The notes beneath the pieces are model-generated. The model saw only the letters and a list, made by a program, of their open reading frames with translations, was not told where the DNA came from and searched no databases. The position numbers and the translations under genes are program-made. From an archaeon (lineage in GTDB: Archaea > Nanobdellota > Nanobdellia > SCGC-AAA011-G17 > GW2011-AR20): 64,000 nt of DNA. The DNA lies in assembly GCA_043808705.1 (NCBI GenBank), contig JAZDEO010000028.1:2703-66702 (forward strand), in the 5' to 3' direction. Positions 2,691 to 41,390 of the stretch are shown piece by piece; the stretch's first letter is position 1, and each line of letters begins with the position of its first letter.

Positions 2691-2756
2691 CAGCAGATTA
2701 AGAAATTTGTCCTTTTAAAAATCTTAGTATTCTTTATTTCTTAGTATTCTTTATTT

Positions 2757-3047
2757 TTAGTAGTCTTGTAATATTTGGTAGCGTGTATCAAAATTTATTT
2801 CAAGGTTTAAAGTTCTAGCCACTTCATATAAACGGGAAGTGTCTATAGAATATTCTATTTGGCCATTAATAGAACTAGAAGAATTAAAACCCAGACCTGT
2901 AAGAGTGCACATATCATCAATAAGATTTTCAGATTCTGCTACTTTTTCTACAGCCAATTCTCCTCTATCAAAATTATCTTGAGATCTAAAGACTAATTTA
3001 AATAAGCCACTCTTTTCTGTTCTTAAAATTGCATAAAAACAAACCAT
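2757..3047 (-). CDS. hypothetical protein (96 aa)
   Basis: ORF only; sits between rpoN and the metallopeptidase. Confidence 0.3.
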   Translation of the reverse strand: MVCFYAILRTEKSGLFKLVFRSQDNFDRGELAVEKVAESENLIDDMCTLTGLGFNSSSSINGQIEYSIDTSRLYEVARTLNLEINFDTRYQILQDY

Positions 3048-3070
3048 ATTAAAAACTCAAGCACTTAATT

Positions 3071-3268
3071 TTAATTTTTTTTGAATTGAGCTATGTCATC
3101 TATCAAATCAACATGACTTGTGAATAATGCTCTACAACAATATCTATCTAAGCCAAGATCATCTAAAACCTTTTTTGGGCTTTCTTTATTTTTTATTCTT
3201 TCTTTGAATTTTTCATAAAGATGTGCTACAGGTTTATTGCAGCTCATACAACGAATAGGAATAATCAT
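3071..3268 (-). CDS. rpoN: DNA-directed RNA polymerase subunit N (Rpo10)
   Basis: MIIPIRCMSCNK…YCCRALFTSHVDLIDDI matches the RpoN/Rpb10 zinc-bundle signature. Confidence 0.88.
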   Translation of the reverse strand: MIIPIRCMSCNKPVAHLYEKFKERIKNKESPKKVLDDLGLDRYCCRALFTSHVDLIDDIAQFKKN

Positions 3269-3329
3269 GGTGTTTTTCCTCCTTAAATATTAAAACAAGA
3301 TAAAATAGGGTTTTATAAAGGTTACTCTT

Positions 3330-4805
3330 TTAATTTTTTAAAATTTTACTTTCTTTGAAATGATTATTATTACCTATTAAATGTTTATAACCTAGGTTTT
3401 CAAGACTATTTTCTTTTCTTACTCTTATTATGACAGAATCACTTACTCTTACTTTATCCATAATTTCTGAGAATTTTACTGTTGGATTTTCTTTATAAAT
3501 ATCAATTATTTTTTGTATCTTTTCCTGAGGAATCTTACATCTTGATTTATTACCTTTGTCAATTTTGTACTTTTTACAAATTCTTCGTACTACACTTTCA
3601 TGAACCCTAAACTGTTTAGCTATTAAATCATTTGATAGATTCATATTTTCTTTAATAAAATCTGCTATTTCATTTCTCTTTTCTTCATCAGTTTTTACTA
3701 CTCTTTCTCCTAGATTATTTTCTTTTAAAACCCTCTGGACTTTTATTTGGCTTACTCCAACTTTTTCAGCTATTTCCAATGTTCTTGTTGTTCCTGAATT
3801 ATACAATTCTATTATCTTTTCTATTTTTTCTTCAGGAATTTTATTCCATATCTTTTTTTCTCCAGTAAAATAACCGGTCTGATTAGAAATATCAGGATAT
3901 TCTTGCATCATAAACAAAAATTTGGAATATTTACTGGGACTTAGGCACATTAATCTTTGTTTAAGAAGTTTGACTAAGTTTTCTCTTTTTGAAATAATCA
4001 TATCCTTATAATCTTTATATTGTTTGATCTCTATTCCAATTTTATTTAAATATTCTTGATATAAATTTCTTTCATCAGAATTATTAGCTGTTAAATGGAT
4101 TCTATATTTTTTACATTTTTTGTCTATTTCCACACAACTTTCTCCTGCTAAAACTCCTTTTATAAAACTAGATATATCCTTTTTATCATAACTATGAAGA
4201 TTATAAGACAAGTTTTTTACATAGCTTTTTATTATTTGACTAAATAATTTGGATTTGTGTTCTATCATTAAAGTTCCATAATAACAATTTTTCAGTTTTG
4301 TATAATTTGAATTTTTGGTGTAAGTAACTGTTTTTGGATATTTAATTTCATCATTTATCTTTGTTTTTGATAACCAGTAATTAATTATTTTATTTTCGAT
4401 CTCTTTTTTGTAATCTAAATCATTTGGTTCTTGCATATTTAATCTAATATACCATCTCCAATTGTTGAAATTTAATTCTAATTCTTTATTGAACCATTCC
4501 ATAACTTTTTTTATTAATCGGTATTCAGAATTAGCAAAGACTAAACAACCGTTATTTGTTTTTCCCATTTCAGCTTGTAATAAACCTAGAACTTCAAATG
4601 TTTCTTCATTACATTTTATTCTTCTTGGTATTGATGTAGAGTGTTCTCTCCAAGAATCGTTAAAATGTTCAGTTATATATGATAAATCAATATAATACTC
4701 TTCAATATTAATATTTAATTTTATTTCTTTTTCATTATCACCAGACAAAATTCTATCTGGAATATACTCTTTTAGATCAATAAATTTTTTGCCCATATTA
4801 GACAA
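3330..4805 (-). CDS. LAGLIDADG-like double-motif nuclease domain fused to three C-terminal HTH repeats (491 aa)
   Basis: Two LAGLIDADG-like segments (LGLLQAEMG at ~aa 73; GVLAGESCV at ~aa 216), each ending in an acidic residue. Three tandem ~50-aa HTH repeats in the C-terminus. Own promoter with conserved upstream motif. Confidence 0.5.
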   Translation of the reverse strand: MSNMGKKFIDLKEYIPDRILSGDNEKEIKLNINIEEYYIDLSYITEHFNDSWREHSTSIPRRIKCNEETFEVLGLLQAEMGKTNNGCLVFANSEYRLIKKVMEWFNKELELNFNNWRWYIRLNMQEPNDLDYKKEIENKIINYWLSKTKINDEIKYPKTVTYTKNSNYTKLKNCYYGTLMIEHKSKLFSQIIKSYVKNLSYNLHSYDKKDISSFIKGVLAGESCVEIDKKCKKYRIHLTANNSDERNLYQEYLNKIGIEIKQYKDYKDMIISKRENLVKLLKQRLMCLSPSKYSKFLFMMQEYPDISNQTGYFTGEKKIWNKIPEEKIEKIIELYNSGTTRTLEIAEKVGVSQIKVQRVLKENNLGERVVKTDEEKRNEIADFIKENMNLSNDLIAKQFRVHESVVRRICKKYKIDKGNKSRCKIPQEKIQKIIDIYKENPTVKFSEIMDKVRVSDSVIIRVRKENSLENLGYKHLIGNNNHFKESKILKN

Positions 4806-4810
4806 TAATA

Positions 4811-4866
4811 AAGACGTTTTAGTTTATAAAGATGGGGGGGCGGAGTTGTCCAGCTGTCCCATATAA
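4811..4866 (-). promoter_or_regulatory. Conserved promoter module copy 1 (GGGACAGCTGGACAA box, 13-nt spacer, TTTATAAA TATA-like box) upstream of the 491-aa HTH gene
   Basis: A ~42-nt stretch matches 63935-63976 base for base on my reading. The GGGACAGCTGGACAA…TTTATAAA core also matches 7188-7242 on the other strand. The TATA-like box ends 24 nt before the ATG. Confidence 0.6.
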
Positions 4867-4913
4867 TAGAATATAGATGATAAAAATGAGAAATATTTAT
4901 ATTTGTTACTACT

Positions 4914-7085: not shown

Positions 7086-7187
7086 CTTAAGATACTTTCA
7101 AAAATTCGGGTTTAAAAATCTTTCTGAAATGAAGGTTTTTTGTTATTTAATCCTTTAAATAATAATACTTTAACATATATATTACAA

Positions 7188-7242
7188 CATATGGGACAGC
7201 TGGACAAATCATCGAAGAAGCTTTATAAACTAAAAAGTCTTA
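7188..7242 (+). promoter_or_regulatory. Conserved promoter module copy 3 (TATGGGACAGCTGGACAA, 13-nt spacer, CTTTATAAACTAAAAAGTCTT) upstream of the 388-aa HTH gene
   Basis: Aligns with the reverse complement of copies 1 and 2, with the same 13-nt spacer to the TATA-like box. A Shine-Dalgarno-like AGGAGGT lies 5 nt before the ATG at 7295. Confidence 0.6.
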
Positions 7243-7294
7243 ATACTATCGTCGTTATTGAGAGGAAATATTCTTGATAAAATAGGAGGTAAAA

Positions 7295-8461
7295 ATGGAA
7301 TTTTCTAAGGATCTTAGGGAATTAAACCAGGATGAATTTAAGAGGGTTTATGATTATTTAAAAGAAAAAACAAATGATTTCTCTTTTGTTTCTCCTCAAG
7401 TATTATTAGAAAATAATCAATATATGTTAATTTTTCGCATCTGTTTAGGAATGTCTCAAAGGAGTCTAGCTGAATTTATTGGCGTTACTAAAGATTGTTG
7501 CAGGCACATAGAATCAAAAAGATTAAGAATAATCAGCCTAAATAAAGTTAAAAGATACTCAGAAAAAATAAATGAATTAATATCAAACAAAAAAATAAGT
7601 TTTGATAATACTTTATTACACTGGGAAAATTATAATAAATTTCAAAAAAATCAAGTGTTCAAACCTAAATTAATTTTGAGGTCATTTAATGAATTACAAG
7701 TAAAAGATTTAAAAAAGTATTATAAGATACTATTAAACAAAACAAATAATTTTCAAAACATAACGCCGAATTTGATTATGGATGTTCCACAGATAATAGT
7801 TCTTTTAAGAGTCGCTGGATGTATTACATGTTTGAAGATTTCTAAACTTAAAATAGTTTCCCAAAAGAGTTTAAACAATTACGAGAAATTAAAATCTACT
7901 ATTAAGCTCCAAACAGCAAATAAATTCTCAAAATTCTTTAATGAACTGTTTGTTAATAATAAACCAGATTATCAAAAATTTGTGGAGAACTTTAGAATTT
8001 TAAAGGGTTTTTACGGATGCCGTGACTTAAATTTTTTAGTAGAACAAGGATTAAACAGAATGGCAAAAATAAATCCCAACCAATATGAAGATGAGATTGC
8101 TGAGTTGTTAAATAAAAATAATATTAAATTTGAAAAACACAAAATCTTGGATGGGTTAAAGACTAAGTCTAATGTTGATTTTTATATTAAAGAGAAAAAT
8201 ATAGTTATGGAAGTATTTTCTTATAACAGTAAAAAAAGAAGTGATATTAAACTAAAAGCTTGTTTTGTTGATCATAGGTTTCAATCTCTAAAATTAAAAG
8301 AACCTTGTAGGAAAACAATAATATGCATAAAAATTTATGGTAAACCTATATTACATGATTATGTAAAAAGGTATTTGACAATGGACTTAATTAATACAGA
8401 TTTTTTGTTTCTTAATAATGAAATAGAAAATCTTGCAAAAACAATCAAAGAAAATTTGTAA
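7295..8461 (+). CDS. XRE-type HTH protein with an uncharacterised C-terminal domain (388 aa)
   Basis: N-terminal LGMSQRSLAEFIGVTKDCCRHIES looks like an XRE helix-turn-helix. The C-terminus (…VDFYIKEKNIVMEVFSYNSKK…) is a possible PD-(D/E)xK-like segment. The gene is inserted between rpoD and rps11. Confidence 0.45.
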   Translation: MEFSKDLRELNQDEFKRVYDYLKEKTNDFSFVSPQVLLENNQYMLIFRICLGMSQRSLAEFIGVTKDCCRHIESKRLRIISLNKVKRYSEKINELISNKKISFDNTLLHWENYNKFQKNQVFKPKLILRSFNELQVKDLKKYYKILLNKTNNFQNITPNLIMDVPQIIVLLRVAGCITCLKISKLKIVSQKSLNNYEKLKSTIKLQTANKFSKFFNELFVNNKPDYQKFVENFRILKGFYGCRDLNFLVEQGLNRMAKINPNQYEDEIAELLNKNNIKFEKHKILDGLKTKSNVDFYIKEKNIVMEVFSYNSKKRSDIKLKACFVDHRFQSLKLKEPCRKTIICIKIYGKPILHDYVKRYLTMDLINTDFLFLNNEIENLAKTIKENL

Positions 8462-28249: not shown

Positions 28250-30070
28250 TTAGAAATCATTTTCTGTTTCACTTAAACTAAATTCAAAATCTTTAGTTTC
28301 TTCATTTATATCTTCACTTATGTTATCTATGTTTGCTGATTCTTGTAATATTCCTAATTTTATAAAATTAAATGAATCTTGTGCATATATTGTTGCGTTT
28401 ACAGCATCATAATCCCCTAAATATGCTCTTAATGTGTATGTTCCTGCTGGAGCTCCTCTTGGTACTGTAAATGTTCTATCTCTATTTATTGAAGATCCTG
28501 CTGGTAATTGAAAATTGTTTATTGGTCCTAGAATAGGCCCATATACTAGACCAGAGGGCAAAATTATATTAACCCAGATATCTACTCTTGATGGTGTTGT
28601 TTCATAATTACCTGCTGCTATATTATAATTTAATCTTCCACCTGAAGGAGGAAATATTGTTGATCCTATAGGATTTACATCAACCCATACATCTGGATAA
28701 TTTAATCCATAGAATGGAAGCCATCTAATCTGTACAGTATTTCCAGATAAATATTCCCATATTACTTTAGATCCTAAGTCAGATATTGATGAAGTTCTTT
28801 GCTCATCTACCACATTATTAGAACCGCTCATTAATTCAGGAGTGCTCCATGTAATTCCTGCATCTTGTGTTATTGTTTTGTATAAATGATTATTTTTTAC
28901 AAATGTTGCCACAAAAGTATTTCCTGAAATATGTTTTAATTGAGGATTACTTTCTCTATCATCAGATGCTGCTACAGTGCTTGTTGCAAGTGAATTTATA
29001 CTACCTGTAGTTGTATTTCTAAATGCTATAATGTCTGTTTCAGAAGGATTTGTTGAGTTATAGACCTCTGCTAAAATTAATAATTTATTATCTTCAGCTG
29101 CTACAACTGGATTTCTTATATTAAGTTGAGGTGTTGTATAAGACCAGGCATAAGCACTCATATAAGGATATCCATTGCCGTGAGTCATTGAATACCAATC
29201 TGCCTTTATTATGAGCAGTTTCCATTTATTTGTAGTTGTATTATACCAATACCAATCATATACTGAATATGTTTTCTGCTGTGTATGATCTATATCTGAG
29301 GATGTTGAATTACAGTTGTTGTATGATACATAATATCTCAGCCATGAATAACCTGTACTATTGAATTGATAGAAGATTGTTGGTGCATTTACTAGTAAGG
29401 GTCCAAAACTAGAATTTATATGACTAATTACAACTGATTGAAAGCCCCAGGCCCAGTCATCAGAACTATTGTCTACTGCTATATCATTCATGGTCATATT
29501 AGTCCAGTTTTGGTTTATCCAGGGCCAGTATGCTGCCCAGTATCTGTCATTAGATGAGTTTGTAATATTCTTGTAATAATACTGAAGCCAGATATTGCCT
29601 CCTGAGCCAGACTCTTTTGGAGTCACCCAGGTACCATAAAAGGCATGTTCCTGATTATTTGGAAGATAGCCCCAATATTCTATACTTGGATAAGTGGCGT
29701 TTGGATATGCATTTATATTTAAGTCTTGTATTTGTCCATCATTGCTATAAGAAATTAATTTCATCATTTTACTATTTGTAATATCATTATATTCTTCGTA
29801 CATCTTTATTAAATAATTATTTCCAGTATTTCCAGAATCAGCTAATGCTGGATGTTTACTATTTATTGAATCAACAATAGAAGATTCAAATTTCTGTTCT
29901 ATTCTTTGTATCTGCATTAGAGATTTACCTGTTTTTGAGTTATCTGCTTCTTCTCCCACTAATGTTAAATCTTGGTTAATATTCATTGAATGAACATTTA
30001 AGCTAAGAACTAAAGTTATTATAAAAAATAGAGTTATTAATACACTGTAGTTTATTTTCATATCTTTCAT
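28250..30070 (-). CDS. large secreted protein with at least one BNR/Asp-box (sialidase-like beta-propeller?)
   Basis: Signal peptide; TQDAGITWS Asp-box (SxDxGxTW). Confidence 0.4.
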   Translation of the reverse strand: MKDMKINYSVLITLFFIITLVLSLNVHSMNINQDLTLVGEEADNSKTGKSLMQIQRIEQKFESSIVDSINSKHPALADSGNTGNNYLIKMYEEYNDITNSKMMKLISYSNDGQIQDLNINAYPNATYPSIEYWGYLPNNQEHAFYGTWVTPKESGSGGNIWLQYYYKNITNSSNDRYWAAYWPWINQNWTNMTMNDIAVDNSSDDWAWGFQSVVISHINSSFGPLLVNAPTIFYQFNSTGYSWLRYYVSYNNCNSTSSDIDHTQQKTYSVYDWYWYNTTTNKWKLLIIKADWYSMTHGNGYPYMSAYAWSYTTPQLNIRNPVVAAEDNKLLILAEVYNSTNPSETDIIAFRNTTTGSINSLATSTVAASDDRESNPQLKHISGNTFVATFVKNNHLYKTITQDAGITWSTPELMSGSNNVVDEQRTSSISDLGSKVIWEYLSGNTVQIRWLPFYGLNYPDVWVDVNPIGSTIFPPSGGRLNYNIAAGNYETTPSRVDIWVNIILPSGLVYGPILGPINNFQLPAGSSINRDRTFTVPRGAPAGTYTLRAYLGDYDAVNATIYAQDSFNFIKLGILQESANIDNISEDINEETKDFEFSLSETENDF

Positions 30071-30184
30071 ATAAATGCCCCTGTTGATATTATAAATTTA
30101 TTATTGATAAACAATCAAATGCTTTTGTGTCATATGTTTTATATAAATACTTTATTATTGTCTAGTATAATATAATTTTTGCGA

Positions 30185-30300
30185 TTAATGGCTCTGGTGC
30201 AACCCTATTTACATCACGACGGTTAGATTTTATGCGAACATTTTGTTTATCTTCGAAACTACAAAAGGGTTGCACCAGAGCCCGATTAATATTAAAAAAG
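30185..30300. repeat. ~115-bp element with ~20-bp near-perfect terminal inverted repeats (MITE-like or structured RNA)
   Basis: TTAATGGCTCTGGTGCAACCCT (30185-30206) pairs with AGGGTTGCACCAGAGCCCGATTAAT (30276-30300). GC content is raised locally. Confidence 0.55.
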
Positions 30301-30325
30301 TTGAAATATTTTTTTATTTTAATTA

Positions 30326-30403
30326 TCCTAATCGAGTAGTAACAGAAAACCTTAAAATACTTAAAAACCATTAAAAAGCTGAGTTAAAATGTCCTTAAAA
30401 AAC
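30326..30403 (+). promoter_or_regulatory. Orphan copy of the metalloprotease promoter module plus first 5 codons (ATGTCCTTAAAAAAC), then diverges and stops early
   Basis: ~75 nt near-identical to 36703-36789 (AGTAGTAACAGAAAACCTTAAA(A)TACTTAAAAACCATTAAAAA…TTAAAATGTCCTTAAAAAA). Confidence 0.6.
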
Positions 30404-30407
30404 AAGC

Positions 30408-31670
30408 TTAATTGGTTTTTATTTTTTCTAAACTATAAGGCAATATTAAAGAATATTCAATATCTTTTTGTGTATTTAGATTAATTAAGTACTTCTTTTT
30501 AGTTTTAGGATATTCTTTCATAAAAGCGTCAAGACCATTGAAATCATCAGATTTTATATTTTGTTTAAACTTTACTTCTAAAGGTATTTGTAAGCTTATA
30601 TTGTCTATAATAAAATCTACTTCAGTTTTATTTTTGTCCTGCCAAAATTTTATATTTTTGATACCCTTTTTTATTAGTTCAGAAAGCACAAAACCCTCAA
30701 ATAAAAAACCAATATCATTCCTTAAGGAGATTTCATTAAAATTCTTAATAAAAAAGTTTCTAACACCATTATCAATAAAATATACTTTTGGGATCTTTAC
30801 AAGTTCTTTATTTTTATTGGTATAAAATGGTTTTAATAAATAAACAAGATATGTTTCTTTCAATATTTCTATATAATTTTTCACTTCTTTATATCTTAAT
30901 GAAAACTTTTCTGAGATTTCTTCATATTTAATCTTTTGACCGTGGTTTACAGCCAGGTATTCTATTAAATTTTTTATATCTAAAATCTTTTCTATGTGTA
31001 AGTAACTGATTAAGTCTTTTTTTGCATATAAGTCAAATATGCTTTCTAGAACTTCTATTTTTTCTTCTTTAGTGTTCTTTAAAACAACCCCAGGATATCC
31101 ACCAAAAATGAGAAATTCTTCTAATAAGTGATTTAATTCAGGTAATAAGATGTAAAGACCATCTCCCTCTAGATTTTTTGCATTATTTAGTTTTTCAATA
31201 ATCTTATCATCTTGTTTGAACCATAAAAATTCTTCAAAATCTAATGCAAAAAGCTCGTTTACTTTTTTTCTGCCAGCAAGACTTTCCTGTACTTGGTCTT
31301 TTATAACCAAAGATGAAGAACTGGAGGCATAAATCTTTATATTATCAAAATTATCATAAACATTCTTCATAATATTTGCAAGATTAATATATTTTTGGAA
31401 TTCGTCCAAGAATAAATAATAAAAATCCTTTTCACTTTCTTTATAACCATTTAGCTTTAGAGTATTAATTAAATTTTCAAAGGTACTTATTTTTTCATAA
31501 TTGGATAGAATATCCAAATCAAGAAAAAGGCATTTGTTAGTTTTTGAAAGCTCTTTATAAAGCTCTTTTAATAATGTTGTTTTTCCAACCTGTCTTGGAC
31601 CTAAAATTATAGATATCTTTTTATCTTTTCTTTGTTCTTTTATCCTTTCAAACAGTTTTCTTGGTAGCAT
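30408..31670 (-). CDS. AAA+ ATPase (AAA_14 + DUF4143 family), paralog 1
   Basis: Walker A ILGPRQVGKTTLLKEL; paralogous to 31867-33126 and 35299-36687. Confidence 0.75.
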   Translation of the reverse strand: MLPRKLFERIKEQRKDKKISIILGPRQVGKTTLLKELYKELSKTNKCLFLDLDILSNYEKISTFENLINTLKLNGYKESEKDFYYLFLDEFQKYINLANIMKNVYDNFDNIKIYASSSSSLVIKDQVQESLAGRKKVNELFALDFEEFLWFKQDDKIIEKLNNAKNLEGDGLYILLPELNHLLEEFLIFGGYPGVVLKNTKEEKIEVLESIFDLYAKKDLISYLHIEKILDIKNLIEYLAVNHGQKIKYEEISEKFSLRYKEVKNYIEILKETYLVYLLKPFYTNKNKELVKIPKVYFIDNGVRNFFIKNFNEISLRNDIGFLFEGFVLSELIKKGIKNIKFWQDKNKTEVDFIIDNISLQIPLEVKFKQNIKSDDFNGLDAFMKEYPKTKKKYLINLNTQKDIEYSLILPYSLEKIKTN

Positions 31671-31810
31671 TTTGTGTTTTTGTTTGTATTTTTATTCTAA
31701 ATTACATCTTTCTTTATTCTAGAGTACTCTAAAATTACTAAATATAGAATAATAGAGTACTATATAAACCTTTCCCTTTTCATATTTTTATTGTTCTATT
31801 TTATATTATC

Positions 31811-31850
31811 CCAACAAAGTAGTAACAGAAAACCTTAAATACTAATATTA
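31811..31850 (+). promoter_or_regulatory. AGTAGTAACAGAAAACCTTAAATAC promoter-module copy (orphan) between AAA paralogs
   Basis: Matches the module at 30334, 36712, and (reverse complement) 44217; a diverged copy is at 33207. Confidence 0.5.
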
Positions 31851-31866
31851 GAAATTATATAGTTAA

Positions 31867-33126
31867 TTATATTGTTGTTTTGTTTAATAATACAAAATAA
31901 AATGGTATAACTTTAATTGTTTTATCTTCAAAATTTATCTCTTGTTTTTTGTTATAACTGATTATGTATCCTATCTTAATATTAAATTTCTTCATGAATT
32001 TTTTTAAACCATCAATATCTATCTTTCCATATTTTATTTCTATAGGTTTTATTATCCCTTTATCCATTTTTATTATGTCTACCTCATTTTTTGATGTATC
32101 TATATAAAAGAATTCAGCTTCTAATTGAATTACAATAAAGTTCTCAAAGGCTTTTGATATTTTTTCAGAGTCTATTAAATCGGGATGTATTATTGAACAA
32201 TAGAACTTCTTTGACTTCTTTTCTGTTTTTCTTATGTTTCTTGAAAAATTATAAAGTTTTCTTATTAAGAAAGAATCCTCAAGATACCTTAAATACAAGC
32301 TTAATGTTTGCCTGGATACAGATAACTCTGAACTTAGCTTGCTTATTTCTATAATTTGTCCTGGATTTAACATTATTATTCTTACTATCTTATCAAGTAA
32401 ATCAATATCCTTAATATCAAAAATTTCGGGAATATCTTTATAGATTATCTTTTCGATTATGCTTTCTTTTAGATATTTTTTGCATGTTTCTATATCTTCA
32501 TTTATTAACTCTGGAAAGCCGTTTGTGATTATATACTGCCTGAATAGATTTAATATATCTCTTTCATACAGTTCTAGATTTTCTCCAATCTTAATATTTT
32601 TAAAAGATATAAATTCTTTAAAGCTTAAAGGTTTTATACTAAATTCATAGAATCTACCTGCGAGACTCTCTCTAGATTTCTTTCTTATAAATAGAGATTC
32701 AGAACCAGAAATTATAAATTTTATATTAGGATAGTTATCATAATATCTTTTTATTTGTTCTTCCCAGTTTTCTAATTTTTGTATTTCATCAAAAAAGAAA
32801 ATATATTTTTCACTTTCAATATTTTTTCCAAATATGTCACAATAAGCTTCTATTACTTCTCTTATTTTAACATCATTAAAATAATCAAAAGAGAAATATA
32901 CAACATTTTCTTTGTTTAGAATTTTTAAATTCTCTTCTATTATTTTAAACATTATTGTTGTTTTTCCTACCCTTCTTAAACCTGTAAGTGCAATAATCTG
33001 TCTTTTATCAATAAATTTTTTTATTTCACCATAAATCTCTCTTGATTTAAACTCTATAGAGAAATCTTTAGTCCACCATTTATTAACATCTCTAAATGCT
33101 GATTTTATATCACTTATTTCTTGCAT
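31867..33126 (-). CDS. AAA+ ATPase (DUF4143 family), paralog 2
   Basis: Walker A LTGLRRVGKTTIMFKI; paralog. Confidence 0.75.
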   Translation of the reverse strand: MQEISDIKSAFRDVNKWWTKDFSIEFKSREIYGEIKKFIDKRQIIALTGLRRVGKTTIMFKIIEENLKILNKENVVYFSFDYFNDVKIREVIEAYCDIFGKNIESEKYIFFFDEIQKLENWEEQIKRYYDNYPNIKFIISGSESLFIRKKSRESLAGRFYEFSIKPLSFKEFISFKNIKIGENLELYERDILNLFRQYIITNGFPELINEDIETCKKYLKESIIEKIIYKDIPEIFDIKDIDLLDKIVRIIMLNPGQIIEISKLSSELSVSRQTLSLYLRYLEDSFLIRKLYNFSRNIRKTEKKSKKFYCSIIHPDLIDSEKISKAFENFIVIQLEAEFFYIDTSKNEVDIIKMDKGIIKPIEIKYGKIDIDGLKKFMKKFNIKIGYIISYNKKQEINFEDKTIKVIPFYFVLLNKTTI

Positions 33127-33245
33127 CTTATAATTAACTTATTATTAATAATATGTTAAGTGTGATTAACATATTTAAATGTTTCTATTTTATATCATTA
33201 TAATCAAGTAGTAACAGAGAAGATTATATAGTTAAAAAGAATAAA

Positions 33246-33270
33246 GAGCGAGAAAATTTTGTGCCTAAGC
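33246..33270 (+). repeat. Repeat A (GAGCGAGAAAATTNTGTGCCTARGC), copy 1
   Basis: Copies at 33246, 33997, 40366, 41391 (partial) and 46891. Confidence 0.7.
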
Positions 33271-33329
33271 CGTCAAGTTACAATTAAAACAATAAACATT
33301 TAAATATGTAAATTAATGTATTCAGTAAG

Positions 33330-33617
33330 ATGAAATACTATATTAAAACAATCAAGTTAAAGGCTTTGCCTGTATTAAAGAAGTATAATATAGCTAGAGC
33401 CGGTATATTCGGAAGTTATGCTAGAGGAGACTATAAAAAGAATAGTGATGTAGATATGTTAATTGAAGTTAAAGATGGTTTCAGTTTACTTGACTTAATT
33501 GGTTTAGAAATGGAACTTAAGAAAATTTTAAAGAAGAAGGTTGATTTATTGACATATGGTTGTATTCATCCTTTATTGAAGGAAAAAATATTAAATGAAG
33601 AGATAAGGATAATATGA
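33330..33617 (+). CDS. minimal nucleotidyltransferase (MNT) antitoxin-type
   Basis: GIFGSYARGDYKKNSDVDMLIEV motif (GS…D.D). Confidence 0.8.
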   Translation: MKYYIKTIKLKALPVLKKYNIARAGIFGSYARGDYKKNSDVDMLIEVKDGFSLLDLIGLEMELKKILKKKVDLLTYGCIHPLLKEKILNEEIRII

Positions 33618-33976
33618 AAAAGGACCCATTAATTTTTATTAGTCATGTTTCAGATAGTATAAACAATATAGAATCATTCTCTAAAAATTTATCTAAAGAT
33701 AAGTTTATTAAAGATAAATTAAGACAAAGTGCGATTATAAGGCAACTAGAAATAATTGGAGAGGCAACAAAAAATCTCCCTTTGGAATTTAGAAAAAAAT
33801 ATCCTGAAACCAAGTGGAAGGAAATTGCTGGGTTAAGAGACAAAATAACCCACCACTATTTTGGCATTAATTTGAATATTGTCTGGGAGGTTGTTGAAAA
33901 GGATATACCTAAATTAAAAGAGAATATCAAAAATATTTTAGATGATTTAAAAGAAGAGAATTCTAATAAAACTTAA
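33614..33976 (+). CDS. HEPN (DUF86) toxin-type protein
   Basis: RDKITHHYFGINLNIVWEVV (Rx4-6H HEPN motif); overlaps the MNT stop. Confidence 0.8.
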   Translation: MKKDPLIFISHVSDSINNIESFSKNLSKDKFIKDKLRQSAIIRQLEIIGEATKNLPLEFRKKYPETKWKEIAGLRDKITHHYFGINLNIVWEVVEKDIPKLKENIKNILDDLKEENSNKT

Positions 33977-33996
33977 TAAGAAAACTTACAATTAAT

Positions 33997-34021
33997 GAGC
34001 GAGAAAATTTTGTGCCTAGGC
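33997..34021 (+). repeat. Repeat A, copy 2
   Basis: GAGCGAGAAAATTTTGTGCCTAGGC. Confidence 0.7.
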
Positions 34022-34105
34022 TGTTTAGTTTTTAGTAATAGAAGATTGTTCCGAAAAGTTTATAAGTAAGATGTAGTTTACATATCTTACAATAGGAGGT
34101 AAAAA

Positions 34106-34378
34106 ATGCAAGTTGAATTAACTAGAATATCTGAAAAAGGACAGGTTGTAATTCCAAGTTCATTAAGAAAAGAAATGGGAATAAATAAATCAGACCAGTT
34201 TATGATATTTGGAGAAGATGGTACTTTAATCCTAAAGAAAATAGAGAAACCAGTTATAAAAAAGAGTTTTGATGAAATAGCAAAACCTTTAAGGATGATT
34301 GCTGAAAAAACAGGATTGACAAAGAAAGATTTAGAAAAAGCTATTAGAGATGTAAGAAATGTTAAGAATAGTTCTTGA
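34106..34378 (+). CDS. vapB: AbrB/SpoVT/MazE-family antitoxin (VapB-like)
   Basis: ISEKGQVVIPSSLRKEMGI swapped-hairpin motif. Confidence 0.75.
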   Translation: MQVELTRISEKGQVVIPSSLRKEMGINKSDQFMIFGEDGTLILKKIEKPVIKKSFDEIAKPLRMIAEKTGLTKKDLEKAIRDVRNVKNSS

Positions 34379-34781
34379 TACAAATGTTTTAGTGTCTGCT
34401 TTCTTTTGGGATGGTAATGAAGCAGAGTTATTTAGAAAAATAGAAGAAAAAAAGGTAGTTCTTCTTATTTCTCAAGAGATTTTAAAAGAGCTTGAAGATG
34501 TTCTTAACAGACCCAAATTTAAAGAGATCATGATTAAGTCTAATATCAATTCAAATGAGATTATACAAAAGATAATTTCAGTTTCACATCTTGTTATTGG
34601 AAATAAACTAAATATCTCTATTTGCAGAGATGAAAAAGACAACAAATTTTTAGAGTGTGCTGAACACGCTAAAGCTGATTATATTGTAAGTGGAGATAGA
34701 GATTTACTTGTTTTAAAACAATATATTAATATTAAAATAGTAAAGACATCTGAAATATTAAAGATAATAACAGTTATATAA
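34359..34781 (+). CDS. vapC: PIN-domain toxin VapC
   Basis: RIVLDTNVLVSAF…VSGDRDLL acidic PIN residues; overlaps vapB. Confidence 0.8.
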   Translation: MLRIVLDTNVLVSAFFWDGNEAELFRKIEEKKVVLLISQEILKELEDVLNRPKFKEIMIKSNINSNEIIQKIISVSHLVIGNKLNISICRDEKDNKFLECAEHAKADYIVSGDRDLLVLKQYINIKIVKTSEILKIITVI

Positions 34782-34784
34782 AAT

Positions 34785-34991
34785 ATGAAATTTGAATATG
34801 ATAAAGAAGTAGATGCCGGGTATATTTATTTAGAGCATCCTATAAAAGAAGGCGGGGTTAAAAAAACAATAGAACTAAATGATAATATAATTCTTGATTT
34901 TGATGAAAAAGGGAAACTTCTTGGTGTTGAAATCTTAAACGCAAGTAAAGTTCTTAATAAGAAAACACTTTTTGAAGCTCAACCAGCTTAA
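34785..34991 (+). CDS. DUF2283-family small protein (TA-associated)
   Basis: …YDKEVDAGYIYLE… typical DUF2283 N-terminus. Confidence 0.55.
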   Translation: MKFEYDKEVDAGYIYLEHPIKEGGVKKTIELNDNIILDFDEKGKLLGVEILNASKVLNKKTLFEAQPA

Positions 34992-34995
34992 TAAT

Positions 34996-35060
34996 TCTAT
35001 CGTCGTTAAAAAGCGACTCCAAAAAGAGGAGCTTTTTGCTTTAAAGAAAAAATATTTAAA
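34996..35060. terminator. Repeat B: bulged hairpin flanked by A- and T-runs on either strand (bidirectional terminator-like), copy 1
   Basis: ATCGTCGTTAAAAAGCGACTCCAAAAAGAGGAGCTTTTTGCTTTAAAGAAAAAA; copies at 34996, 41412 and 46916. Confidence 0.5.
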
Positions 35061-35069
35061 AGAAAATTA

Positions 35070-35230
35070 AAATTTTATTGGTTGTTTCCCTGCGACCAGC
35101 CCCCACCACCAGAACTGGAATATATAATAATATTCTGCCAGTTATAATAATTTATCATAAAAGATGTCCAATAACAACAAGATTCTTCATAAGGTAGAGT
35201 AAAAACAACATCCAGAATTTTGTACATAAC
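35070..35230 (-). pseudogene. 3'-terminal fragment of a paralog of the Cys-rich surface protein gene (…SSGGGGWSQG-like end)
   Basis: GCGACCAGCCCCCACCACCAGAACTGGAATA… aligns with the 3' end of 47004-48920 (47010-47140). Confidence 0.45.
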
Positions 35231-35285
35231 TTAAAAGGTTATTTTAAAGTAAGAAACTACTTTTCTTCAAAACTTCCTTTACTGC
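35213..35285. repeat. Repeat C (ATTTTGTACATAACTTAAA…TTAAAGTAAGAAAC…TTCTTCAAAACTTCCTTT), copy 1
   Basis: Second copy at 41478-41550. Confidence 0.55.
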
Positions 35286-35298
35286 AGTCTTAAATGAT

Positions 35299-36687
35299 CT
35301 ATTCTAATAACCATTTCCATAAAGGAATAAACTGTATTCCCTGCTCTTCTTTTTCCAAATCTTTCGTAATAACAATCAGTTCTTTTGTCTTATTAAACTT
35401 ATTTTTAAAGTCCAGTAAACTATTTATCTCTCTCTCATCTATTTTATTAGTGTAAGAAACATTAATGGCTGTTAAACTCTGGTCTTTATTCTTTATAACA
35501 AAATCAACTTCATACTTATCTTTCCAGTAATATACATCAAGTTCCTTTCTTCTTAGTTCTATGAATACAAGGTTTTCAACAAGCTTTCCCTCATCCTTAG
35601 AAAATTTAAATGAAACCGCATTTCTTAATCCATTATCTATACAGTATATTTTTCTTGGTTTTTGAATCATAATTGATTCTTTTAAAGAATAAGAAAAATA
35701 CTTTAACTGAAATATCAAATAAGCTTCTTCTAAGTAATTTAAATACTCTCTTAGACTATTAATATTAATACCAATATTTTTAGATATCTTATTGTAACTA
35801 AATTCTGTAGATATATTAGTTATGGTATAATAAGCTAATTCTGTTAATTTTCCCATTTCCCTAACATTTTTTGATTTGACTATATCTCTAAATAAAATAC
35901 CATCAAAATATTCCTTTAATCTTTTATTATTTATATCATCATTATTTTCCAATACAACCTCTGGAAATCCGCCTTTGTTTAAATAATCTAAGAGATAATG
36001 CTTTATTTCCTCTTTTTGTAGTATCATGCTATCTATCTTAACTTGATTAAAATTAAGAAATTCTTTAAAAAATAAAGGAAAGATTTGTTTTGTTAAAATT
36101 CTTCCAGTAAGTAATTTTAGTAAATTGCTTGAAAGCATAGAGCTATTTGAACCAGTAATAATAAATTTTATTTCGTTTCCATACATATCATAATATTTTT
36201 TAATCCACCTTTCCCATTCATTAATAACTTGTATTTCATCAAAGAAAACATATTTTCTACCTTTTGGATTATTTATTTCTAAAAATGTTGTAAATACTTG
36301 CTCAAGAACTTCAGTACTTTTATCTTGCAAAGGCTCATCAAAATTAAAGTATAATATATTTTTTGCATTTGTATTATTATTTATTAAATCATTAATTGTT
36401 TGATAAATAAATGTTGATTTTCCAGACCTTCTAACACCAGTTAATACTAGTATTTCCTTTGTTTTTATTAATTTAAGAATATCTTTTAAAATCTCTCCTC
36501 TTATTATCAATACCTTATTCTCTGGAACTTTTTTATATTCCCACCATACATTCCATTTTACAAGTAATTCTTTCATGTTTATTTCTTTCATACCAATAAT
36601 TAATAATTTGTTGCTTATAAATCTTTGCATTGTGATTAAAGGTTTACTATCAAAACTATCATTTATGATTAAAGGTTTATAAGACAT
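35299..36687 (-). CDS. AAA+ ATPase (DUF4143 family), paralog 3
   Basis: Walker A LTGVRRSGKSTFIYQ; paralog. Confidence 0.75.
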   Translation of the reverse strand: MSYKPLIINDSFDSKPLITMQRFISNKLLIIGMKEINMKELLVKWNVWWEYKKVPENKVLIIRGEILKDILKLIKTKEILVLTGVRRSGKSTFIYQTINDLINNNTNAKNILYFNFDEPLQDKSTEVLEQVFTTFLEINNPKGRKYVFFDEIQVINEWERWIKKYYDMYGNEIKFIITGSNSSMLSSNLLKLLTGRILTKQIFPLFFKEFLNFNQVKIDSMILQKEEIKHYLLDYLNKGGFPEVVLENNDDINNKRLKEYFDGILFRDIVKSKNVREMGKLTELAYYTITNISTEFSYNKISKNIGININSLREYLNYLEEAYLIFQLKYFSYSLKESIMIQKPRKIYCIDNGLRNAVSFKFSKDEGKLVENLVFIELRRKELDVYYWKDKYEVDFVIKNKDQSLTAINVSYTNKIDEREINSLLDFKNKFNKTKELIVITKDLEKEEQGIQFIPLWKWLLE

Positions 36688-36702
36688 ATTTTATATAATT
36701 AT

Positions 36703-36774
36703 CCTAATCAAGTAGTAACAGAAAACCTTAAATACTTAAAAACCATTAAAAATACAATTAAAAGGTTGATTAAA
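36703..36774 (+). promoter_or_regulatory. Metalloprotease promoter module (AGTAGTAACAGAAAACCTTAAATACTTAAAAACC…), full copy
   Basis: Directly upstream of the ATG at 36775. Similar module in reverse complement upstream of the paralog at 44174-44235. Confidence 0.55.
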
Positions 36775-38193
36775 ATGTCCTTAAAAAATATTGTTAATGG
36801 AATAAAACATAAAGCAAAGATAGCTGCATTTACAGGACTGGCTGCTTTGGTGTTAGCAGGAACTCCTAAAAAAAGTGATGCTCAAATGCTTTATGGATAT
36901 GTTACTGATGTTATAACAGGACAAGGGATTCCTGATATGAAGGTAATAAATGATGGTGTAGATTCAACTGTTACAGATATTGACGGATATTATAATTTAT
37001 TTGTGACTTATGCTCCTCCTGTTGGTCCTCCAATCATACATCCACAGCTTATAAGGGGAAGATTAATTGATGTATTTAATATTAGGGGAAGTAAAGTTGG
37101 AACACTAAATGAAGGACAAGGATTAGAGGACTTTATAAGAGATAGAGGATTAGCCTTTTCAAATATATATATTTTAAGAACACCTGTACATGATTATTTT
37201 TCTAAGGGTTTTGCAAATCAGCTTGTTGTTATGTTAAATAATAGTGTTGTTGGAACAGGAAAAGAATCTTATACTATTAGAACTGTAAATGCAGATCAGA
37301 ATAATTTTGTTGTTAATTCATCTAGTACAAACCAGAACGCTTTAAGGAATAATAGGAGTAATTATAATGGTCTTAGAGGAAATAGAAGTCTAGATGAAAC
37401 TATTCCTTTATTAATATTCAGAGATGAATCTGATACAACTGATGGAAAATATTGGGACATTGAAAGACAAAATTTTGAAATTTCAGGAGATTCTGCTCAT
37501 AATGAAGAGATGGTTCCAACTTGGATGACTCATATTAGCAATCCTTTTGATTCTACTTTTGTGGATTATAATTACTGGGCAACTATCTTAGATTTTGACC
37601 CAGTTGACCCCACTAATTATGATTTCAATAGTTGGAAATATTGGGATTATGATTCTATAGGAGTTTATGTTCCTCAAGAACCACCTGGTTCAACTCATGA
37701 TTATCAACAACTAGTCATAAATTCTTTAATGGGAAAAACTTCACAAGGAGATCCTTATGATGGATGGAATACTGGAGTAGCTGACTTAAACAGAGCTAAT
37801 AATTATCCTGTATTTTTTATTGCTCCTGACTGCACTTATGTTATTAATAATGGTGGAGCTTTTGTTCAATATTTTCCTACTGCATCATTCAATGCTCACG
37901 TTACTACACTTAGAGGACCCCCTTCACCTTTAAAGAGAATAGAATTTAATTTAGGTTACTTTAATTCAAAATCAGATTCTATTTTTTTAGAAATATCTGC
38001 TCATGAATTTGGTCATGTACAAGGATTAGCAGAAGCATATGATAATGTATATTCTGATAGAATAATGTATGGTAATGTAGGTAATCCTCTCTTCTATACG
38101 GGTGATGGAACAATAGATGATTATTCAAAAAGCGTAGCTACTATAATACGTAACAGAACAGACAATAATTATGGAATTATTAAAAAAAAGTAA
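36775..38193 (+). CDS. secreted HExxH zinc metalloprotease (paralog 1)
   Basis: Start MSLKNIVNG… at the ATG at 36775 (the track's 36766 is a TTG start). Signal peptide; ISAHEFGHVQGL zinc motif near the C-terminus. Confidence 0.6.
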   Translation: MSLKNIVNGIKHKAKIAAFTGLAALVLAGTPKKSDAQMLYGYVTDVITGQGIPDMKVINDGVDSTVTDIDGYYNLFVTYAPPVGPPIIHPQLIRGRLIDVFNIRGSKVGTLNEGQGLEDFIRDRGLAFSNIYILRTPVHDYFSKGFANQLVVMLNNSVVGTGKESYTIRTVNADQNNFVVNSSSTNQNALRNNRSNYNGLRGNRSLDETIPLLIFRDESDTTDGKYWDIERQNFEISGDSAHNEEMVPTWMTHISNPFDSTFVDYNYWATILDFDPVDPTNYDFNSWKYWDYDSIGVYVPQEPPGSTHDYQQLVINSLMGKTSQGDPYDGWNTGVADLNRANNYPVFFIAPDCTYVINNGGAFVQYFPTASFNAHVTTLRGPPSPLKRIEFNLGYFNSKSDSIFLEISAHEFGHVQGLAEAYDNVYSDRIMYGNVGNPLFYTGDGTIDDYSKSVATIIRNRTDNNYGIIKKK

Positions 38194-38278
38194 ATTAATA
38201 AATTTATAGAAGGATAAACTTAATCTTATTTTTTAAAAGCAAATTTTTCTGAAAAAAATCTATTCCAAAGTTCTTTCC

Positions 38279-38389
38279 TTAGTTTTCTATTTTTTTAAAT
38301 TTATCATTACCACAAACACATTCAAATATAGGAATATCTCCGTTTTTTACTTCATAACTTATCTTACATCTTTTGCATATGAATTCCAT
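38279..38389 (-). CDS. 36-aa zinc-ribbon mini-protein (CxxC…CxC)
   Basis: MEFICKRCKISYEVKNGDIPIFECVCGNDKFKKIEN read from the reverse strand; below the track's length cut-off. Confidence 0.3.
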   Translation of the reverse strand: MEFICKRCKISYEVKNGDIPIFECVCGNDKFKKIEN

Positions 38390-38429
38390 AGATAAGAGTA
38401 TTACAAACTTATTAATAGAACCTCTTATA

Positions 38430-38484
38430 GGTAAATTTTGTCAAAAACAATAATTTTTTATATTTGATTGTATTTTGACAAAAT
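38430..38484 (+). promoter_or_regulatory. Inverted repeat TTTTGTCAAAA…TTTTGACAAAA bracketing the TATA-like box of the Lrp/AsnC gene (candidate autoregulatory operator)
   Basis: Two 11-bp half-sites 41 bp apart immediately upstream of ATG 38485. Confidence 0.4.
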
Positions 38485-39489: not shown

Positions 39490-39844
39490 AGAATTAAAAT
39501 GGAATTTTTTAGAAAAAGAAAATGTAGAAGTTGGTTTTATTGATAAATTGATATTTAATAATAGATTTGATGTTATTCACGCAAGAATAAAACCTAATGA
39601 AAGATTAAACAAACATTTTCATAACAGACCAGATAATGGAGAAGAGATTTTTTGTTTCTTTAAAGGGGGTCATTTTAAACTGTTATCAGAAAAGGAAGAA
39701 AGAGAATTTAACACAAAAAACGTTTTGTTTATACATTTTAACTCTAAAGAAATTCATGGTGTTCAGAATTTATCAAATAAAGCTTTAGAATTTCAAGTGT
39801 GGTGTTCCCCTCCATTTAAACCAGGAGAGGTAAAGGTATTATAA
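39464..39844 (+). CDS. cupin-domain small protein
   Basis: …EIHGVQNLSNKALEFQVWCSPPF… cupin-like beta-barrel pattern. Confidence 0.35.
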   Translation: MKMEVIKYEELKWNFLEKENVEVGFIDKLIFNNRFDVIHARIKPNERLNKHFHNRPDNGEEIFCFFKGGHFKLLSEKEEREFNTKNVLFIHFNSKEIHGVQNLSNKALEFQVWCSPPFKPGEVKVL

Positions 39845-39865
39845 TTTTTTTAGTAATTTTTTACT

Positions 39866-40261: not shown

Positions 40262-40285
40262 CTCAAAAAAATAAATAGGTGGTTA
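40250..40285 (-). promoter_or_regulatory. Conserved 10-bp stem hairpin (ATAACCACCT…AGGTGGTTAT) sequestering the Shine-Dalgarno of the 39866 gene
   Basis: On the coding strand AUAACCACCU-loop-AGGUGGUUAUAAUG; same structure at 46785-46820. Confidence 0.5.
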
Positions 40286-40365
40286 TCTTTTCAGGCACAA
40301 TGTAAATTTTGGAGCCATATTCTTTTAATGGCATGACCTTTCTTTCAGAAAGGGAAAAGAATAAT

Positions 40366-41389: not shown

Positions 41390-41390
41390 T

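Follow-up and report, generated by a model that had tools for sequence, protein, structure and literature searches.

The window considered here, a 64,000-nucleotide stretch of contig JAZDEO010000028.1, is a piece of archaeal chromosome from a DPANN metagenome-assembled genome (MAG), with a GC content of 26–33% along its length and 28% overall. It contains a 15-mer box, GGGACAGCTGGACAA, at exactly three sites, 4846–4860 (minus strand, copy 1), 63958–63972 (minus strand, copy 2) and 7193–7207 (plus strand, copy 3), and no further site is found in the window when up to three mismatches are tolerated (0.43 expected by chance). The box is a direct repeat, GGACA-N3-GGACA (GGACA-gct-GGACA in the window), and the original prediction that its three copies stand upstream of otherwise unrelated genes holds. 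Copies 1 and 3 lie within the classical cluster S13-S4-S11-RpoD-L18e-L13-S9-RpoN of ribosomal protein and RNA polymerase genes: behind copy 1, between S9 and RpoN, is a 488-amino-acid (aa) gene with LAGLIDADG and helix-turn-helix (HTH) domains, and behind copy 3, between S11 and RpoD and on the opposite strand, a 388-aa XRE-type HTH gene. Copy 2, a direct repeat of copy 1 at a distance of 59 kb, precedes a TnpB gene.

When oriented to their downstream genes, the three copies can be aligned over about 85 nt, in the order AT-rich stretch, ATAT, box, spacer, TTTATAAA and nnAAAAnGTCTT. The limits first given to the motif were too narrow, as conservation includes about 30 nt of AT-rich sequence upstream (tAAtATATATtTTacAg.ATAT) and AaAAAGTCTT downstream of the TATA box, and continues in the class of copy 3 through a 5' untranslated region (5'UTR) of about 65 nt to the ATG. 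The identity of about 42 nt claimed for copies 1 and 2 is real, the actual run being 43 nt (TATATGGGACAGCTGGACAACTCCGCCCCCCCATCTTTATAAA) inside 84 nt at 87% identity. In contrast, the spacing that had been called fixed is not strictly so: copy 3 has 14 nt between the box and TTTATAAA, one fewer than the 15 nt of copies 1 and 2, and this difference of one nucleotide separates two spacer classes in all 14 copies described below.

Copy 1 (minus strand) consists of an AT-rich distal element (4861–4890), which follows directly after the S9 stop at 4914, the box (an exact match), a GC-rich spacer CTCCGCCCCCCCATC (4831–4845) in the position of the TFB-recognition element (BRE), the TATA box TTTATAAA (4823–4830), located 26 nt before the ATG at 4796, a leaderless-type spacing, and, between TATA and start, the proximal element AAAACGTCTT (4811–4820), to compare with the AaAAAGTCTT of the 14-copy consensus. 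In copy 2 (minus strand), the distal element (63973–64000, from the three-copy alignment) is cut by the window end, and is followed by the exact box, the same spacer CTCCGCCCCCCCATC (63943–63957, read from the sequence) and TTTATAAA (63935–63942), 21 nt before the ATG at 63913. Copy 3 (plus strand) comprises the distal element (7163–7192), which like that of copy 1 is defined by the three-copy alignment and the 14-copy consensus, the exact box, the spacer ATCATCGAAGAAGC with its CGAAG BRE-like 3' end (7208–7221), the TATA box TTTATAAA (7222–7229, again a sequence reading), 65 nt before the ATG, and the proximal element AAAAAGTCTT with the conserved 5'UTR (TATCGTCGTTATTGAGAGGAAATATTCTTGATAAA..GGAGG; 7230–7294). 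This last part was delimited by blastn of the other loci against the window, and is 85–89% identical to the equivalent part of Bro-N genes on other contigs. The spacers of copies 1 and 3 each represent the class of 7 of the 14 copies.

The gene behind copy 1 (3330–4796, minus strand) encodes a double-motif LAGLIDADG protein with three tandem HTH units, according to Pfam, homologs, synteny, an AlphaFold2 (AF2) model and Foldseek. It had been described as a 491-aa gene, but its start is most likely the ATG at 4796, giving 488 aa, and this protein is identical to NCBI V1663_03245 ('MAG: hypothetical protein [archaeon]'), its homologs being named Nanoarchaeota or Woesearchaeota (DPANN). In the AF2 model (pLDDT, a per-residue confidence score, 88), three three-helix HTH units occupy residues 322–462, and Foldseek matches the model to I-DmoI (E 2.5e-5), the N-terminal domain (NTD) of WhiA (3hyj, E 2.9e-4), 8dy9_I (E 1.2e-3) and other LAGLIDADG enzymes. 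The motifs LGLLQAEMG and IIAGEG keep their acids, E76 being invariant and E219 conserved in at least 90% of 44 aligned homologs. Residues 322–439 match NCBIfam HTH_Cbp1 with an E-value of 1.9e-9 and 37.6 bits, far under the cutoff of 140.

The gene behind copy 3 (7295–8461, plus strand) is the 388-aa XRE gene originally proposed, and its product combines an internally duplicated XRE-type HTH module (about residues 15–118 and 125–238) with a C-terminal domain of restriction-endonuclease-like alpha/beta fold (PD-(D/E)xK superfamily). D295, E306 and several K are invariant in the family, a candidate catalytic D...E...K pattern read from conservation. This family is rare (20 homologs), and no sequence relation to a solved protein was found for it.

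What had been taken for a 67-aa open reading frame (ORF) behind copy 2 is a TnpB fragment: it represents the first 55 codons of a 348-aa TnpB gene (63749–63913, minus strand), interrupted by a 685-nt tnpA-only IS200 (63064–63748, plus strand; TnpA at 63234–63713, Pfam Y1_Tnp), delimited by its insertion limits and subterminal hairpins, whereas codons 56–348 continue in a different frame at 62182–63063 (minus strand). Clustering at 90% or more groups the fragment with 348-aa 'transposase' proteins, including two of the same MAG, and Pfam identifies these proteins as TnpB (OrfB_IS605 and Cas12f1-like TNB). With such a 348-aa protein as query, tblastn places residues 1–55 on 63913–63749 and residues 56–347 on 63063–62188, in the other frame, with 90% identity over 292 aa for the 3' part. 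The insertion point is codon 55/56, and intact TnpB copies exist elsewhere in the MAG (MFH1210086.1, MFH1209369.1). Because the insertion sequence (IS) lies within the TnpB gene, copy 2 is to be seen as the putative promoter of TnpB, and the IS200 as a later intruder that does not own the motif.

Additional copies of the module were found in one metagenome. An exact 18-mer of the module gives 18 single hits in GTDB species representatives, all in unrelated bacteria, where about 17 were estimated by chance, and five chance hits in a scan of IMG/VR, so that neither collection includes the lineage with this box. A metagenome scan recovered the complete module on ten contigs of a single metagenome (Ga0315284, 26–31% GC). 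These contigs carry eleven copies beyond the window (two of them on L032), bringing the number to 14. A profile built from the 13 copies having the exact 18-mer, and searched against the window and the low-GC loci, re-found these 13 together with one diverged copy (all 14 at E 1e-18 to 1e-22), and nothing else. The resulting consensus is tAAtATATATtTTacAg.ATAT-GGGACAGCTGGACAA-[spacer]-TTATAAA-..AaAAAGTCTT, with TTTATAAA or a one-base variant in 14/14 copies, as in every orthologous promoter discussed below; this TATA box fits the archaeal TTTAWATA-type consensus. Two spacer classes can be distinguished, ATCATCTAC/AGAAG in seven copies and CTCCGCCCCCCCA in the other seven (two of which are variants), one with a CGAAG BRE-like end and the other C-rich.

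In all cases the module keeps the same orientation relative to the downstream gene, and these genes are non-homologous: the 488-aa LAGLIDADG-HTH gene and its ortholog (window and L031), the XRE gene (window), a 615-aa protein combining XRE-HTH, Mrr_cat and NERD (L032), Bro-N genes (four copies; PADLOC PDC-S13, E 8e-122), genes for Schlafen AlbA_2 with HATPase_c_4 (two copies), three different TnpB genes (window, L032 and L040), and a 111-aa protein without assigned family (L026). Only the HTH part aligns when the XRE family of the window is compared by hhalign with the XRE-Mrr-NERD protein of L032. Ten of the 14 copies thus precede non-transposase genes, syntenic chromosomal genes among them. 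At three loci (L051, L038 and, probably, L024), the box comes 38–39 nt after the stop of a gene for a tyrosine recombinase that has a zinc ribbon at its C-terminus, two of these integrases sharing only 30% identity.

Several minor elements accompany these copies. Two different TnpB genes are separated from the module by a conserved short ORF of 37–41 aa (MSINKKFMNLTTYNHLITGVEQ.HIQI.KRG.LKWT; L032, 2290–2400; L040, minus strand, about 3240–3130). A hairpin-forming element, TGTAGGTTCAAAGGTTCAAAA...TTTGAACC, is found directly 3' of Bro-N genes (L024, 1358–1395 and 2797–2834; L051, 8478–8588) and is absent from the window; in L024 it recurs after the next two genes, and may be a cassette boundary or a terminator. 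At L038, the integrase gene standing before the module copy has an array of 24-nt tandem repeats (AAATAATCTTAAAATAATTTAATC; 645–781) on its upstream side. The 5'UTR of the XRE/Bro-N class (window 7242–7294, with equivalents in L024, L032, L035, L046 and L051) is foldable, UCGUCG pairing with the Shine-Dalgarno (SD) sequence GGAGG, and UUAUUGAGA with UCUYGAUAA. An SD-sequestering hairpin would thus be possible, but a structured RNA is not retained, as six sequences show zero compensatory changes, and because of this the conserved 5'UTR could equally be a DNA operator. An 11-mer, TATCGTCGTTA, present four times in the window (0.01 expected), has one copy in the 5'UTR of the XRE gene (7247–7257) and three (34998–35008, 41420–41430 and 46924–46934) in 83-nt repeats 3' of nucleotidyltransferase/HepT pairs, each followed by CTCCaaaaagaGGAG and a T-run.

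Does the module represent the end of a transposable element, or a recombination site such as an IS200/605 end, a miniature inverted-repeat transposable element (MITE), an integrase attachment (att) site or an integron attC? Its surroundings would invite such an explanation: copy 2 adjoins an IS200/605 region, three copies precede TnpB genes, three others follow integrase genes, and copies 1 and 2 are direct repeats. The hairpin potential of the module is not significant on either strand (z -1.5 to +0.2), whereas the genuine IS200 ends fold strongly (63080–63170, z -5.1; 63719–63740, z -2.5), and the IS200 next to copy 2 is, as described above, an insertion into the TnpB gene. The module has no inverted partner, no second copy flanks the integrase loci, the 59 kb between copies 1 and 2 are full of housekeeping genes, and the same architecture precedes syntenic chromosomal genes across lineages. 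This origin is therefore very improbable, and the motif does not behave as the IS terminal sequence that had been named as the possible refutation of a regulatory role.

The individual candidates fail in turn. IS200/IS605 left or right ends are rejected as there is no TnpA-type subterminal hairpin and the module is not confined to tnpA/tnpB boundaries, and a MITE or an IS with terminal inverted repeats because no inverted partner is found nearby, the copies being single and always gene-oriented. An integrase att site is not supported, with a single copy in each of L024, L038 and L051 and no att duplicates around the integrase-module-cargo loci, and no ORF of the window matches the integrases of the other loci by BLASTP. 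Integron attC/attI sites are discarded in the absence of a hairpin and of an array, the integrases being co-oriented and upstream, and a tRNA-derived att site or a known RNA family is excluded as ARAGORN and Rfam give no match in the window. Finally, the idea of a 59-kb integrated element with copies 1 and 2 as its ends is rejected, given the many housekeeping genes in between: the S13-S4-S11/RpoD/L18e-L13-S9 cluster, phosphofructokinase, Met-tRNA ligase and a secretion-ATPase (T2SSE/T2SSF-type) cluster.

The 14 copies also raise the possibility of a mobile regulatory cassette without any dedicated regulator, that is, a strong promoter of about 85 nt copied from gene to gene by recombination at conserved segments, whose conservation would simply reflect recent spread. 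Copies standing before unrelated genes are 85–93% identical over 67–129 nt, with the similarity ending at or near the start codon, and spacer class, 5'UTR type and gene occur in varying combinations (either spacer class is found with AlbA_2 genes, and likewise with XRE genes). L032 and L040 share 355 nt (module, short ORF and leader) at 87% identity before TnpB genes that are otherwise about 65% identical, and integrases with 30% identity have the same module 38–39 nt after their stops. There is also a documented precedent in T4-type phages, whose PeSL (promoter early stem-loop) cassettes, made of an early promoter and a terminator stem-loop, stand in phage hyperplastic regions before often accessory genes (PMC2839356, PMC4122927). 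The likeness lies in a conserved promoter sequence before unrelated genes, and possibly in mosaic junctions of the kind expected from gene shuffling by recombination. In contrast to PeSL, the module lacks a stem-loop, is chromosomal and archaeal, and is also found before old syntenic genes. Cassette spread taken alone is a tentative explanation, clearly less probable than a regulated promoter, since it leaves two observations without explanation, namely the persistence of the GACA-repeat/TATA architecture with changed sequence at syntenic orthologs (40–55% identity), and the frozen box and spacer amid drifting flanks between the window and L031.

The comparison across lineages bears directly on this point. 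In L031, which is syntenic with the window (about 81% nucleotide identity in genes), the box of copy 1 and its spacer (33 nt) are 100% identical while the flanks drift. Further away, the 488-aa family is conserved after S9 in Woese-/Nanoarchaeota, and follows L13-S9 in relatives 50–55% identical (L057–L062 and L080). The XRE gene lies convergent to S11 in four of the DPANN genomes examined, with 51% identity for a Woesearchaeote (L063), 41% for a single-cell genome (L069) and 56% for a TARA marine contig (L071). Both genes have diverged to an extent comparable with their neighbours S13, S4, S11, RpoD, L13 and S9, L069 being the most distant relative for most of the compared genes. Because they hold the same positions in relatives with 40–55% identity and diverge like their neighbours, the 388-aa and 488-aa genes are best seen as old residents that are vertically inherited, and a recent insertion or a homing origin is unsupported by this comparison. 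Occupancy is not universal, as S9 is directly followed by RpoN in L069 and L071. The suggestion that a portable promoter cassette travels with selfish genes is thus half right: other copies do head three TnpB genes, together with Bro-N, Schlafen and nuclease cargo near integrases, with reassorted parts, but the two genes of the ribosomal protein cluster have stayed in place.

At these orthologous genes the architecture is kept while the box is changed (e.g. TTGACAcacTTGACA, CGGACAcacCGGACA), with seven box variants across lineages. The XRE promoter of L069 has a distal AAAATATATATT-gtactcac, the box TTGACAcacTTGACA, the spacer TGTCAGCGCAGAG and the TATA box CTTATAAA, 22 nt from the ATG; that of L071 has a distal AAAATATATATT-ccaaacta, the box CGGACAcacCGGACAA, the spacer CCACCCGCGCCAA and the TATA box CTATATAAA. 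For the LAGLIDADG-HTH gene, L060 has AGACACGCGACA, TCCGCACGCGCGAC and ATTTATAAA as box, spacer and TATA (22 nt to ATG), and L057 and L080 the box GGACGACACGACAA, a GC-rich spacer of about 17 nt and a TATA box 20–21 nt before the ATG. The AT-rich part of the L080 promoter recurs elsewhere in that locus, in ordinary AT-rich promoters without the box. Bro-N genes follow the same scheme in Nanoarchaeia (L073: box AGACAGACGACAA, spacer CCACCCGCGTGAAG, TATA CTTATAAA, 22 nt to ATG) and in a Woesearchaeota genome of 45% GC (L078: box CTGGACACTGGACA, spacer TGTGCGGGCAAG, TATA CTTTATAA). In L063, the XRE and LAGLIDADG-HTH promoters share TAAAATATATATTAAAAGGTAGG[G/T]TTACAGGACAAA, 36 nt with one mismatch. 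Beyond this shared part, their GC-rich spacers (CACCCTCGTGGAG and TGCGCGCGCCGCA) are unrelated, and the TATA box stands 19–21 nt before the ATG. Boxes therefore agree within a genome and diverge between genomes (three identical boxes in the window, 35/36 nt in L063), in a sample of three genomes or contigs with at least two copies. In six loci, each from a different organism, the promoter of the LAGLIDADG-HTH gene itself contains GACA-type repeats. A distal AAAATATATATT-type element precedes the box by 8–9 nt in nearly every lineage examined (window 7170–7183, L069 about 8925, L071 about 3000) and, about 47 nt before the functional TATA, resembles an additional TATA box.

A generic pattern, GACA-N1-5-GACA-N11-16-TATA, was run on the window and ten further loci. 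In the window it finds the three known sites only (shuffle mean 0.23, maximum 2). Seven of the ten loci, from six further distinct genomes, give exactly one site per genome, in every case at an XRE, LAGLIDADG-HTH or Bro-N promoter. Because of different half-sites or spacing, L063, L057 and L080 go undetected; L057 and L080 are recovered with a looser pattern, but not L063, with its poor first half-site. The TATA-to-ATG distance is 19–28 nt at 10 promoters in 8 genomes. As the archaeal TATA box is centred near -26/-27, such a distance is what would be expected for leaderless mRNAs.

A last alternative is that box and spacer form the recognition site of a homing nuclease, either the LAGLIDADG-3xHTH or the XRE-PD-(D/E)xK protein, the module and its neighbours being copied by cleavage and repair. 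Both proteins would be suited to such a role, the former through its two conserved acids and a fold matching the active I-DmoI, the latter through its restriction-endonuclease fold and D...E...K pattern. Both genes also lie between highly conserved ribosomal protein and RNA polymerase genes, and free-standing homing endonuclease genes favour sites between conserved genes, as do the seg/mob genes of T4. The perfectly conserved stretch of 33–43 nt has a length typical for LAGLIDADG targets, and the direct S9-RpoN junctions of L069 and L071 amount to a polymorphic occupancy. However, homing would hardly leave two genes diverging like flanking housekeeping genes, as under vertical inheritance, and an active enzyme with several intact targets would cut its own genome. 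Promoter function, unlike homing, accounts for the fixed orientation and for the distance to TATA and ATG. This explanation is thus improbable, and a more elaborate version is about equally so: the LAGLIDADG/3xHTH protein might be both a regulator and an active site-specific nuclease or nickase, targeting the 33–43-nt box-plus-spacer of its own and other promoters, so that cut-and-repair copies and homogenizes the module between loci ('promoter homing'). If true, this would explain the identical boxes within a genome, and also how TnpB, integrase islands and defence genes came to capture the module.

Taken together, these data favour, with a probability of about 0.75, a leaderless-type archaeal promoter combined with an upstream operator that co-evolves with its regulator, in a small nuclease/mobilome regulon which mobile genes have also joined. 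The operator reading follows from the fixed position of the box next to the BRE/TATA region, the constant orientation, the leaderless-type spacing to the ATG, and the conservation at orthologs with agreement within genomes, and the box is likely the binding site of a candidate sequence-specific regulator. Two further elements of the original prediction fit well in this framework. The promoter with a regulatory box upstream of BRE/TATA is supported, and so is the small regulon, as the module serves non-homologous genes; across distant DPANN lineages, the architecture is kept at orthologous genes with a drifting box.

In the proposed mechanism, a distal AT-rich element of AAAATATATATT type would be followed after 8–9 nt by a box made of two GACA-type half-sites in direct repeat, then by a GC-rich spacer of 13–15 nt in BRE position, TTTATAAA and a short conserved proximal element. 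Transcription is predicted to start about 22–25 nt past the TATA box, producing leaderless or near-leaderless mRNAs for most genes, and a leader of about 40 nt with a Shine-Dalgarno sequence in the XRE/Bro-N class of the window's clade. The presumed regulator would occupy the box at about -47 to -61, counted from a start assumed some 23 nt past TATA, and could recruit or block the TATA-binding protein (TBP) and transcription factor B (TFB). The anchors of the regulon would be two lineage-conserved fusions of HTH arrays and nuclease folds, XRE 2xHTH with PD-(D/E)xK and double LAGLIDADG with 3xHTH, and the other members are likewise nucleases or DNA-binding proteins of mobilome or defence type. 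Mobile and defence-type genes (TnpB, Bro-N/DinD-like, Schlafen-AlbA_2, XRE-Mrr-NERD, integrase-linked islands) would share the operator and thus be switched together with host genes. The cassette exchange discussed above is compatible with this regulon, as the way in which new members enter it: within the window's clade, module exchange would be the route taken by mobile genes. It is not the whole explanation, because it does not account for the orthologous promoters of distant lineages.

Which protein would read the box? The downstream HTH proteins, initially proposed as candidate self-regulators, are reasonable choices. The LAGLIDADG-3xHTH protein is the leading candidate, short of an even chance, followed by the XRE 2xHTH protein, which suits a direct-repeat site because it has two HTH modules in one chain, and whose promoter keeps the box also at loci with no LAGLIDADG-HTH gene next to S9; some other factor is just as possible as the XRE protein. 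The LAGLIDADG-HTH protein is weakened as a universal binder because its gene is absent from the S9/RpoN junction in L069 and L071, although it may be elsewhere in those genomes.

Several observations weigh against a regulated promoter. The absence just mentioned is one of them, since both genomes have a boxed XRE promoter. The period of the half-sites varies between lineages (5–9 nt), which is awkward for a rigid two-domain binder, and the first half-site of L063 is poor. The identity of boxes within a genome could result from gene conversion between copies, and as the extra copies with the exact box all come from one metagenome, some of the 85–93% identities may reflect recent transfer and not constraint. 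An operator does not by itself account for the existence of two spacer classes or for the conservation of the distal AT-rich element, and the start sites are predicted from spacing.

In the library searched, nothing was found on a DPANN promoter motif or regulon, nor on either gene family, and the closest known systems are analogies. In Gram-positive bacteria, WhiA combines a LAGLIDADG scaffold and a C-terminal HTH, binds GACAC (also GACGC/GACAG) and acts at its own promoter (PMC3781837, PMC10243135). Here too, a LAGLIDADG+HTH gene has GACA-type repeats at its own promoter, boxes contain GACAC, GACAG or GACAA, and the 488-aa model, which matches 3hyj and 8dy9, shows the bipartite arrangement of a LAGLIDADG fold followed by HTH that is seen in the WhiA family. 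In contrast to WhiA, the 488-aa protein has three HTH units and not one, keeps the catalytic acids that WhiA has lost (E76 and E219), and belongs to an archaeal host with a TATA/BRE promoter. Kinship at the sequence level is rejected, as the WhiA Pfam families (WhiA_N, LAGLIDADG_WhiA and HTH_WhiA) give no match in the 488-aa protein at E≤0.01, and WhiA is absent at E≤10 from a PDB profile search with the 488-aa family. WhiA is thus at most an analogue.

Archaeal regulators are known to bind just upstream of BRE/TATA, for example at the upstream activating sequences (UAS) of Ptr2 in Methanocaldococcus and of GvpE in haloarchaea. The module resembles them by a short repeated site at a fixed distance upstream of BRE/TATA, placed to help or hinder TBP/TFB, and differs by a GACA direct repeat preceded by a conserved AT-rich element, and by members of nuclease/mobilome type and not metabolic or structural genes. 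Bacterial prophages, integrons and transposons carry LexA (SOS) boxes, so that mobile genes fire with the host response. Similarly, mobile elements here bear the putative operator of a host regulon, and one member is homologous to DNA-damage-inducible protein D (source naming), but the operator is a direct repeat instead of a palindrome, and archaea are not known to have a LexA. Another parallel is Cbp1, a CRISPR-repeat-binding protein of Sulfolobales with tandem (triple) HTH, whose units read a long asymmetric DNA site. The 488-aa protein also has several HTH units per chain, with the sub-threshold HTH_Cbp1 match reported above, but it adds a LAGLIDADG domain, and there is no CRISPR array here.

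If the regulon is real, it would offer a cis-element with a short list of regulators, and a site co-evolved across lineages that is suited to pairing protein residues with DNA bases. It would also provide an archaeal counterpart to WhiA, as a homing-endonuclease scaffold turned into a regulator that reads GACA-type motifs. Furthermore, TnpB, Bro-N/DinD-like PDC-S13, Schlafen-like and Mrr/NERD genes would be wired into a host circuit anchored among ribosomal protein and RNA polymerase genes.

Other features of the window concern the setting of these genes. The rpoD gene has its own TATA box, TTTTTAAA (about 7111–7118, minus strand), 25 nt before its ATG and divergent from the XRE promoter, the box being about 75–90 nt upstream of this rpoD TATA, and for RpoN TTTATAAA is found right behind the stop of the 488-aa gene (3269–3329). 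Because rpoD and RpoN have TATA boxes of their own, the ribosomal protein/RNA polymerase operon appears to be split by the two HTH-nuclease genes into separately promoted units. At 2722–3071, about 350 nt with a 96-aa ORF (2757–3047, V1663_03235) compare with only about 96 nt in the syntenic L031; this ORF is a singleton in the protein collection, and corresponds to a small lineage-specific insertion between a 139-aa gene and RpoN. Finally, the region 30000–47000 is an island of paralogous AAA_14/DUF4143 ATPases (30408–31670, 31867–33126 and 35299–36687) and nucleotidyltransferase/HepT toxin-antitoxin pairs (33330–33976 and 40454–41389). Repeated sequences of another kind (e.g. TTATCCTAATCAAGTAGTAACAGAAAACCTTAAATA, four times) flank the genes of this island upstream and downstream, and, unlike the GACA-box module, the repeated promoters here accompany paralogous genes.

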